A program made the position numbers and the translations under genes. This document shows positions 32 to 323 of a stretch of 11,924 nucleotides of DNA, in pieces. How positions within the stretch are numbered: position 1 is the stretch's first letter; each line of letters begins with the position of its first letter. Source of the DNA: a virus (lineage: Duplodnaviria > Heunggongvirae > Uroviricota > Caudoviricetes); IMG/VR virus record IMGVR_UViG_2526164647_000012, one strand, 5' to 3'. The notes under the pieces are model-generated. The model did no database searches, was not told the DNA's origin, and worked only from the letters and a program-made list of their open reading frames with translations.

Positions 32-323
32 AGCCTCACCTCCGCAAATAACGGATGGCGTAGTTTTACACTGAGAAATGAAAGGGATTTGAAAAGAAAA
101 AAACGCAAAAGCGGGCGAAACGATATATACAGTAAGGAAAGCACTCTATCCAACAAACCACTCACAGTTAATCGGAATAAAAGCAGAGTGCTTATGAATG
201 ATCGCCTGCCCGAAGGTTAGTATTTCTGCACAGCAATTTTGCAAAAAAAAGCGATCATTCATAACTTAAACGTCTTTCAGTCACTCCGGGATTTCCCATC
301 ATCGCAGACTGAAAGACTCTGAC

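Follow-up and report, generated by a model that had tools for sequence, protein, structure and literature searches.

The question raised by this locus is what occupies the 292 nt (positions 32-323) that separate the last tRNA gene, a tRNA-Gly, from the holin gene of a lambdoid prophage. The window, that is, the whole stretch of 11,924 nucleotides analyzed here, contains a prophage remnant in which the integrase is split and homology to other prophages ends at position 4621. The prophage is adjoined by serU. In the original prediction, made from the sequence of the window, the interval was seen as an empty cargo position without an ORF, carrying two long perfect inverted repeats which might be processing or attenuation signals for read-through into the lysis cassette, or else a scar of cargo loss. 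The coordinates of the features of this region are collected in Table 1.

Table 1. Features of the Q-to-holin region of the window, listed in the direction of minus-strand transcription.
Feature	Position	Strand	Basis
Late antiterminator gene Q	1575→832	minus	Pfam Phage_antiter_Q, E 5e-91
PR'-like late promoter, TTGCAA-17-TATATT, overlapping the end of the Q gene	843→815	minus	promoter scan
Short PR' leader RNA, with putative tR' terminator hairpin (741-770) at its end	739..811	minus	terminator scan
Putative sigma-70 promoter of the tRNA operon, TTGCAA-17-TATTAT, 9 nt ahead of the first tRNA	671→643	minus	promoter scan
tRNA, anticodon CAU	558..633	minus	ARAGORN: Met; PGAP on the relative in L003: tRNA-Ile
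tRNA-Lys(UUU), variable second slot of the array	480..556	minus	tRNA scan
tRNA-Thr(UGU)	402..477	minus	tRNA scan
tRNA-Gly(UCC), last tRNA of the array	324..398	minus	tRNA scan
Hairpin P1, the 11-bp repeat I2	317→272	minus	repeat finder and alignment
Hairpin P2, the 14-bp repeat I1	264→192	minus	repeat finder and alignment
Hairpin P3, the third repeat I3	191→141	minus	repeat finder and alignment
U-rich single-stranded spacer, differing among relatives	117..140	minus	alignments
Putative intrinsic terminator, decayed, GCCCGC-UUUU-GCG then U7	116→97	minus	consensus GCCCGCUUUUGCGGGC then U4
Holin 5' UTR	96-32	minus	
First 10 codons of S21-type class II holin, ATG at 31, MKSMDKISTG; the gene leaves the window	31-2	minus	

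The interval is located between the tRNAs of the late operon and the lysis cassette, and its contents differ between phages; to that extent its description as a cargo slot was correct, but the slot is not empty. Sub-threshold matches to isrK/isrJ were found at 739-812 (cmscan, Rfam 15), and at the place in phage HK639 that is equivalent to the PR' leader there is an isrJ match of 34.6 bits together with an annotated terminator. In the relative L003, the counterpart of the holin bears the annotation "class II holin family protein". About 70 nt directly ahead of the holin ATG are common to the window and to PhiR49_2, a phage without the structures described below.

Both repeats were recovered by a repeat finder. 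The arms of I1 (192-205 and 251-264, 14 nt) and I2 (272-282 and 307-317, 11 nt) are 100% complementary and lie 45 and 24 nt apart, respectively; as had been noted, I2 stands right behind tRNA-Gly, the tRNA ending at 324 and the repeat beginning 6 nt later. A third perfect repeat which the original prediction had missed, I3 (139-147 and 185-193, 9 nt, 100%), adjoins them. When positions 32-323 were shuffled 2000 times with preservation of dinucleotides and scored for the longest perfect inverted repeat with a loop of 3-60 nt, none of the shuffles (0/2000) gave a repeat of 14 nt or more, seven (7/2000) gave one of 11 nt or more, and two repeats of at least 11 nt were never seen together (0/2000); a chance origin of the repeats is excluded. 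Folding of the minus-strand RNA, which had been proposed as a check, gave -99.3 kcal/mol for positions 1-330 against -79.6 +/- 4.3 for shuffled sequences (z = -4.5), and the hairpins form in the minus-strand (Q→holin) transcript, as anticipated. Between the two strands, the folding energy was -68.1 kcal/mol for the minus and -51.2 for the plus strand.

The three hairpins, hereafter the element, have many relatives. A scan of IMG/VR with an 18-mer from the P2 loop returned at least 120 contigs with approximately 70 distinct core sequences. Since the 18-mer that gave this first sample of relatives was taken from the P2a loop, the sample overstates the conservation of that loop; an unbiased second scan made use of a 15-mer from P3, the matches being sorted by a covariance model of P2 and P3. 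A scan of IMG/VR with a 14-mer from P1 yielded, beyond the loci already known, chance matches and one genuine new P1 (L278). Among complete E. coli genomes, 530-536 of 5426 (approximately 10%) carry the element with 95-99% identity, always on the chromosome and always beside an annotated tRNA-Gly, while the element itself was unannotated in the rows sampled. In a scan of one genome per species, real copies were found in E. coli, Shigella flexneri, Enterobacter hormaechei, Citrobacter sedlakii, Yokenella regensburgei and Phytobacter ursingii, hence in six enterobacterial genera. The element is also present in phages phi467, 689R5, 606R7 and PhiR47_1, and HK639 carries a copy which is 75-79% identical. 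PhiR49_2, 611R1, the Stx phages, DLP12 and the prophages of E2348/69 possess Q and holin, with or without tRNAs, but no element.

Compensatory base changes in all three hairpins were first evident in the HK639 copy. RNAalifold, applied to 47 sequences with all three hairpins, recovered P1, P2 and P3. In this alignment (A2, covering P1 to P3) 98.5% of the cells are paired and 11 of 52 pairs show double changes (75 cells), against 36-49% paired cells and 1-5 pairs with double changes in slid controls. A second alignment (A4) of 44 diverse matches over P2 and P3, which was fitted to the covariance model and is to be read as such, has 95.4% of its cells paired and double changes at 17 of 41 pairs; its slid controls gave 36-50% paired cells and 4-10 pairs with double changes, and a count of 17 was reached by 0/500 shuffles. 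G·U cells number 197 against 35 A·C cells, and reading the opposite strand would lower the pairing to 85.8%. The excess of G·U over A·C indicates that the structure belongs to the RNA of the Q→holin sense rather than to the DNA or the opposite transcript. Within the close clade, variable columns were 16/104 for paired and 20/72 for unpaired positions (p = 0.06), so that paired columns are only somewhat less variable there. By these data, the repeats are the stems of a structured RNA of approximately 180 nt with three hairpins, encoded by the minus strand, and the RNA is very probably functional.

P1 consists of a lower stem of 12 bp, a near-invariant internal loop (306-298 with 287-283), a GGG/CCC tip and a variable loop. 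The 12 pairs of its helix 1 are 98.6% paired in alignment A2, with double changes at three of them. The internal loop fits the kink-turn (K-turn) pattern, with C304-G284, a bulge of G303, A302 and U301, then G300.A285, A299.G286 and U298.G287, followed by GGG/CCC; among the 47 sequences, the residues which would make up this putative K-turn show no variation or are conserved to more than 90%. In P2 a stem of 14 bp closes a three-way junction with an inner hairpin, P2a (247-223), and a mini-hairpin, P2b (216-209). The loop of P2a has the sequence AAAUUGCUG and diverges in the most distant matches, L168 and L175; the stem of P2a covaries, with U.G, C-G and U-A among relatives and UUUUUAU/AUAAAAA in L175. 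P3, which has an outer helix of 8 bp and an inner helix of 9 bp, exceeds the other modules in conservation and autonomy and shows double changes at seven of the eight pairs of the outer helix in alignment A4. The 3' strand of P3, GGUGGUUUGUUGGAU, is nearly invariant and its partner strand varies, pairing being kept by switching between A-U and G·U. Three stretches are therewith near-invariant without a need from pairing: the internal loop of P1, the loop of P2a and the 3' strand of P3. These candidate functional sequences are in part base-paired.

The hairpins reassort as modules. P1 is absent where P2 directly follows tRNA-Gly, it stands by itself in L278, where a different long hairpin comes after it, P2 is replaced in L215, and P3 is solitary in L228. 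Such reassortment fits a set of separate cis signals as much as it fits a single RNA. A terminator scan of the minus strand found no terminator-like site at P1, P2 or P3. Attenuation by the two hairpins originally noticed was not borne out: no run of U follows either of them, the U8 run (250→243) being within the loop of P2 and behind its 5' arm only, and in relatives a separate terminator stands approximately 25 nt past the third hairpin. P1 and P2 are thus not attenuators.

The element is closely linked to tRNAs. A tRNA, nearly always Gly(UCC), ends approximately 80 nt ahead of the P2 loop in 89 of 120 loci, and most of the loci which appear to be without a tRNA, HK639 included, retain a decayed remnant of tRNA-Gly. 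At a few loci a small ORF ends right at P2 and the element then closes other transcription units, again before a terminator. The commonest array, CAU-Lys-Thr-Gly, was found 57 times, its second slot being often swapped. A putative promoter, TTGCA(A/G/T)-17-TAT(T/C)AT, 9 nt ahead of the first tRNA, is kept where the sequences upstream of the array are otherwise unrelated to each other, in at least 10 such cases. No terminator comes between the last tRNA and the element, which is followed by the predicted terminator of the operon; this is the arrangement of a trailer of the 3'ETS type. The element probably belongs to the transcription unit of the tRNAs.

Of 69 distinct relatives, 43 show a putative terminator, a hairpin with a U run, behind P3, compared with 26 of 345 random control segments from the same loci. 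Its position is a median of 22 nt past P3, and at least five unrelated stem sequences are found there; in HK639 the terminator after the element was annotated by the depositors in GenBank. No conservation is seen in the spacer ahead of the terminator, the segment in which the seed of many Hfq sRNAs is located. In the window the terminator of the tRNA/RNA unit appears, from its sequence, to have decayed: the site has a 3-bp stem of -3.3 kcal/mol, compared with -13.7 for the consensus hairpin. Close relatives form a series of decay, GCGGGC/GCGGG/GCGG/GCG, of which the window represents the last step.

Past the terminator the gene is an S21-type holin in 67 loci and one of many other ORFs elsewhere. 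HK639 and L168 have an STnc100 sRNA gene with its own terminator just downstream of the element; the slot of HK639 is longer by approximately 480 nt, the STnc100 copy included, and that of PhiR49_2 is filled by an unrelated spacer with a small ORF. Cargo turnover takes place after the unit and not inside it. The suggestion that the repeats flank an insertion point is not upheld, the cargo varying 3' of the element's own terminator and not between the repeats. According to the original prediction, what would tell against it was the same sequence in related prophages without cargo variation at the site, and this is largely what was found, the sequence being at a fixed distance from tRNA-Gly in approximately 530 E. 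coli genomes and the cargo varying elsewhere. Overall, that interpretation is partly supported: the slot and the strand were right, "empty" and "scar" were wrong. As in a moron, the unit has predicted signals of its own, a promoter upstream and a terminator downstream, and it is present or absent at one site among otherwise similar phages. Given the order of promoter, tRNAs, structured RNA and terminator, the unit may be regarded as a noncoding moron within the late operon.

Known RNA families were searched for. With cmscan at E <= 1, the Rfam 15 families matched in positions 1-1000 of the window were the four tRNAs and, weakly, isrK/isrJ, with none in 32-323; in five relatives no Rfam 15 match overlapped the element. 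STnc100 (RF02076) has no match in the window, and its matches in HK639 and L168 lie beside the element, not over it. Four published probes for Pas sRNAs, allowing up to four mismatches, found nothing in the window or in any locus, and blastn showed no similarity to the PasA/PasD2 region of E2348/69 PP2. No match better than E = 0.13 came from a covariance model of the element (R1) when it was applied without filters to E2348/69 PP2, PP4 and PP5, K-12 DLP12 and PhiR49_2. IpeX/DLP12 was considered and set aside, since only the start of the DLP12 holin matches. GcvB has one 10-mer, GGTCTGCGAT, in common with the P1 of the HK639 type; at an E of 0.08 in a tiny search space this is taken as chance. 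A hammerhead or other ribozyme in the loop of P1 was rejected, there being no match to a ribozyme core and none in Rfam. RNAduplex pairing of the conserved segments with the sequences of the window, L003 and HK639 returned self-antisense pairings only, plus one cross-phage match of 17 bp; the latter, in the spanin region of HK639, is absent from the cognate prophage and was treated as chance. Literal searches of papers for six conserved strings hit two unrelated papers only, and a description of the element was not met with in the literature on HK639, lambdoid tRNAs and sRNAs, 3'ETS and tRNA arrays, as far as its incomplete coverage goes. The element is apparently an undescribed RNA family among the noncoding RNA morons of prophages and the trailer RNAs of tRNA operons.

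Among known systems, 3'ETS-leuZ, the trailer of the E. coli glyW-cysT-leuZ tRNA operon, is said, in work of Lalaouna et al. from 2015, to be a sponge of sRNAs. Like it, the element lies between the last tRNA and the intrinsic terminator of the operon, would be freed by tRNA 3' processing, and would end in a terminator hairpin with a U tail. The chromosomal 3'ETS-leuZ has approximately 50 nt and little structure, whereas the phage-borne element has approximately 180-220 nt and three conserved hairpins. In T4 the stable RNAs "species 1" and "species 2" (rnaC, rnaD), of unknown function, close the tRNA cluster. They too are structured RNAs directly behind a phage tRNA cluster, and in T4 are co-transcribed with it; T4, however, is an unrelated virulent phage, and the tRNA-like features reported for its RNAs, here compared by description, were not seen in the element. 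GOLLD and ROOL are conserved noncoding RNAs of phages and prophages, often beside tRNA arrays, with 500-800 nt and ornate folds, mostly from Firmicutes and relatives. The element is likewise a conserved noncoding RNA beside a tRNA array, yet both of these families are in Rfam and neither matches it. The slot from Q to the holin is a hot spot of prophage sRNAs, among them STnc100 (RF02076), PasD, PasA, PasC, AgvB, AsxR, Esr41 and the EcOnc sRNAs (PMC8550237, PMC4104026, bioRxiv 10.64898/2026.05.13.724894), and the Pas sRNAs adjoin the holin (bioRxiv 10.64898/2026.05.13.724894). The element shares with these the lambdoid slot and the delimitation by a terminator, and is in tandem with STnc100 in HK639 and L168; it differs in that it matches none of them in sequence or by model, is fused to a tRNA array instead of standing alone, and has the sense of the late operon, to which PasA and PasC, as well as the EcOnc sRNAs of the moron site, are convergent. 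By analogy, the architecture appears most to resemble that of tRNA-operon trailers such as 3'ETS-leuZ and of the RNAs which end the T4 tRNA cluster.

Taken together, the structured RNA may be the 3' trailer of an autonomous tRNA operon which is embedded in the lambdoid late operon and runs from a sigma-70 promoter of its own (671→643) through four tRNAs and the structured RNA to a terminator (116→97), likewise its own and decayed in this prophage. As a noncoding "moron" this operon would fill the cargo position that follows Q, PR' and tR' and precedes the lysis genes. In the lysogen it would be transcribed from the tRNA promoter and, after induction, by Q-modified read-through from PR'. Processing of the 3' end of tRNA-Gly would cut the AU-rich linker of 6 nt and release the trailer, which would accumulate as a stable RNA of approximately 200 nt ending at the terminator. 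The trailer could then act in trans, through the internal loop of P1, the loop of P2a and the G/U-rich strand of P3, on an RNA or protein partner, while the terminator would shield the holin gene from transcription begun at the tRNA promoter. What the comparisons show is the structure with its strand and conservation, the link to tRNAs, and conserved signals for a promoter and a terminator; transcription, processing, stability and action in trans are inferred. To this reading as a whole, a stable trailer RNA freed by tRNA processing and acting through its invariant sequences on a partner, we give an even chance, the function being the conjectural part; action in trans, judged by itself, is proposed tentatively and falls slightly short of that.

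Several other explanations were weighed. The polymorphism of the slot among lambdoid phages and the remnant state of the prophage would suit neutral palindromes left as a scar of cargo loss, or a site acting at the level of DNA, such as a cruciform, a protein-binding site or a recombination boundary. That reading is already contradicted by the pairing and strand data: the repeats are stems of a conserved RNA whose compensatory changes preserve pairing across lineages 60-78% identical, the excess of G·U over A·C speaks for selection on one RNA strand and not on duplex DNA, and the position relative to the tRNA is fixed in hundreds of genomes; it is accordingly considered exceedingly improbable. 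A small protein gene has hardly any probability at all. The original statement that the interval has no ORF is correct in substance, although mechanical ORFs exist (28..165 on the minus strand, 45 aa; 89..220 on the plus strand, 43 aa; and an ATG ORF at 262→146, 38 aa), and in two phage records an automatic "hypothetical protein" call covers the element. Neither the length nor the frame of these ORFs is kept among relatives, in which the longest ORF has 23-51 codons (with one antisense ORF of 62) and switches strand; a Shine-Dalgarno sequence is absent, indels of 1 and 2 nt in the U run and of 1 nt in P2b alter the frame between lineages, and the substitutions preserve RNA pairs. A processive antiterminator, in which the nascent hairpins would modify RNA polymerase to pass the terminators that follow, could draw on P2 and P3 being adjacent stem-loops without a spacer, with one to three terminators before the lysis genes. 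The put RNAs of HK022, which replace protein N, have approximately 70 nt and function in early operons (PMC9378689). They resemble the element as adjacent stem-loops in a lambdoid transcript upstream of terminators, but by description the element stands apart from them: at 130-180 nt it is larger, its place is the late operon, and a Q gene, which already supplies antitermination, always accompanies it. HK639 is, we presume, one of the phages reported to use put RNAs, and this would count in favor. A constitutive tRNA promoter upstream combined with built-in antitermination would, however, express the holin in lysogens, and an activity of this kind is regarded as very improbable.

Other alternatives which take the hairpins as a functional RNA deserve more weight. 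As a cis-acting leader of the late mRNA, they would form its new 5' end once the tRNAs have been excised from the Q-antiterminated PR' transcript, in variants shielding it from 5'-end-dependent RNase E or serving as processing sites for RNase III or RNase E, which comes near to the "processing signal" proposed originally. The start of P1 6 nt past the CCA end of tRNA-Gly, the long and perfect stems, the place of the element ahead of the holin in the late transcript at 67 of the loci examined, and a modular reassortment that suits independent cis signals all agree with this. A stabilizer, on the other hand, would need only a terminal hairpin, and here there are three, whose loops and internal loops are close to invariant in sequence; behind the element come its own terminator and, past that, genes that differ between loci or a further RNA gene, the element is also found after small ORFs closing other units, and Stx and other lambdoid phages have tRNAs at this place without it. 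A leader function is, on balance, unlikely. The hairpins might instead dock a host or phage protein, P1 by way of a K-turn, and sequester or recruit it; an RNase, or a tRNA-targeting defense nuclease that the tRNA array counters as well, might be decoyed in this way. Such a role, which we consider rather improbable, would accord with the constancy or near-constancy of the G and A residues in the P1 loop, set against covarying flanking stems and a variable tip loop, with the autonomy of the modules and with the tight link to a tRNA array whose second slot is frequently swapped. It rests, however, on pattern; to our knowledge E. coli has no K-turn protein of the L7Ae type, L063 has A-U in place of A.G, and across the loci examined the presence of the element is not tracked by any protein gene. 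It is also conceivable, though doubtful, that the element is a modular RNA which binds protein or tRNA, rather than an sRNA that base-pairs, and that it is functionally a part of the tRNA array, with a K-turn in P1 and with UGGU and UGGA motifs exposed in P3 that are complementary to tRNA 3' ends (ACCA, UCCA); it would then be a decoy or sensor against tRNA-targeting defenses of the host, or would couple the status of tRNAs to the expression of the lysis genes.

Returning to the trailer RNA, comparative support is strong for its structure, and it is a well-supported candidate for the RNA repertoire of prophages. The RNA is carried by approximately 10% of complete E. coli genomes and by prophages in several other enterobacterial genera, and has no annotation in the RefSeq genomes sampled. 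The lambdoid cargo site, which in Stx phages is the place of Shiga toxin, can hold a unit of promoter, tRNAs, structured RNA and terminator, and in the lysogen the expression of this kind of unit could do without Q. The terminator separates a probably constitutive promoter from the holin gene, and the decay of its stem by steps, as seen in some prophages, may therefore bear on leaky expression of lysis genes. The locus also offers a concrete case for asking why structured RNAs so often trail the tRNA clusters of phages.

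In phage HK639 (locus L001), the tRNA-Gly gene was found to be reduced to its 3' half (about 3174-3250, minus strand) and gave no ARAGORN call. Despite this truncation, all three hairpins (P1 to P3) of the adjoining structured RNA element are intact, so the element is maintained without its tRNA neighbour. One lineage of relatives (L006, L031, L069, L173, L200, L208 and L224) carries a small ORF in place of the element-adjacent tRNAs. This ORF, located about 110 nt upstream of P2, encodes a hydrophobic peptide of about 40 amino acids (MGVWKIALILTASLIAGVFIY...), and its stop codon lies 3 nt 5' of P2, so that the RNA there would be a 3' UTR. 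In relative L084, P3 is interrupted from about 9690 onward by an IS3-family insertion (orfA MSGKRYPEEFKIEAV...).

The tRNA array upstream of the element is variable at its second position (480-556 in the window, and its counterpart in loci L005-L124). The occupants of this swap site were Lys(UUU), Arg(UCU), Phe, one "Stop(tta)" call and several tRNAs with odd anticodon loops which could not be named by ARAGORN. The anticodons common in the array (CAU, UUU, UGU, UCC and UCU) read A-ending codons; the CAU tRNA is annotated by PGAP as Ile in a relative.

Features of the window and of relatives (L001, phage HK639; L168, a related locus)
Feature	Sequence	Coordinates	Strand
Terminator after RNA element	window	97-116	minus
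PR'-like promoter and short terminated leader	window	739-843	minus
Split integrase (two overlapping ORFs)	window	4773-5444, 5345-5812	plus
serU tRNA-Ser(CGA), adjoining split integrase	window	5840-5929	
mtfA, past serU	window	5984-6820	
tRNA-Asn, past serU	window	6921-6996	
Second integrase fragment, past serU	window	7671-8420	
IS3-family transposase gene	window	8527-9366	minus
IS3-family transposase gene	window	10659-11477	plus
STnc100 (RF02076), above gathering score	L001	2706-2911	minus
STnc100 (RF02076), above gathering score	L168	8016-8219	plus

The prophage is a remnant, as the stretch 4621-5929 shows. Homology with other prophages stops at approximately 4621, and neither an immunity nor a replication region is present between the hokD-like area and int. 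The stretch from 5984 to 11477 is a second degraded island, beside asnT.

Comparison of close relatives revealed a stepwise decay of the terminator following the RNA element. Four forms of its 3' arm and tail were identified, GCGGGCTTTT, GCGGGTTTTT, GCGGTTTTTT and GCGTTTTTTT, whose hairpins fold at -13.7, -11.5, -6.6 and -3.3 kcal/mol, respectively. The window carries the weakest of these, so that little separates the holin gene from the putative tRNA promoter.

The PR'-like promoter and leader match isrK and isrJ, two sRNAs of Salmonella prophages, below threshold; the equivalent place in HK639 reaches 34.6 bits, where the gathering score is 37. The PR' leader RNA may belong to the isrK/isrJ family as a divergent member. 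In both HK639 and L168 the STnc100 copy is located directly 3' of the element's terminator. HK639 thus has, between Q and its lysis genes, a tandem series of three or four RNA units, each delimited by a terminator.
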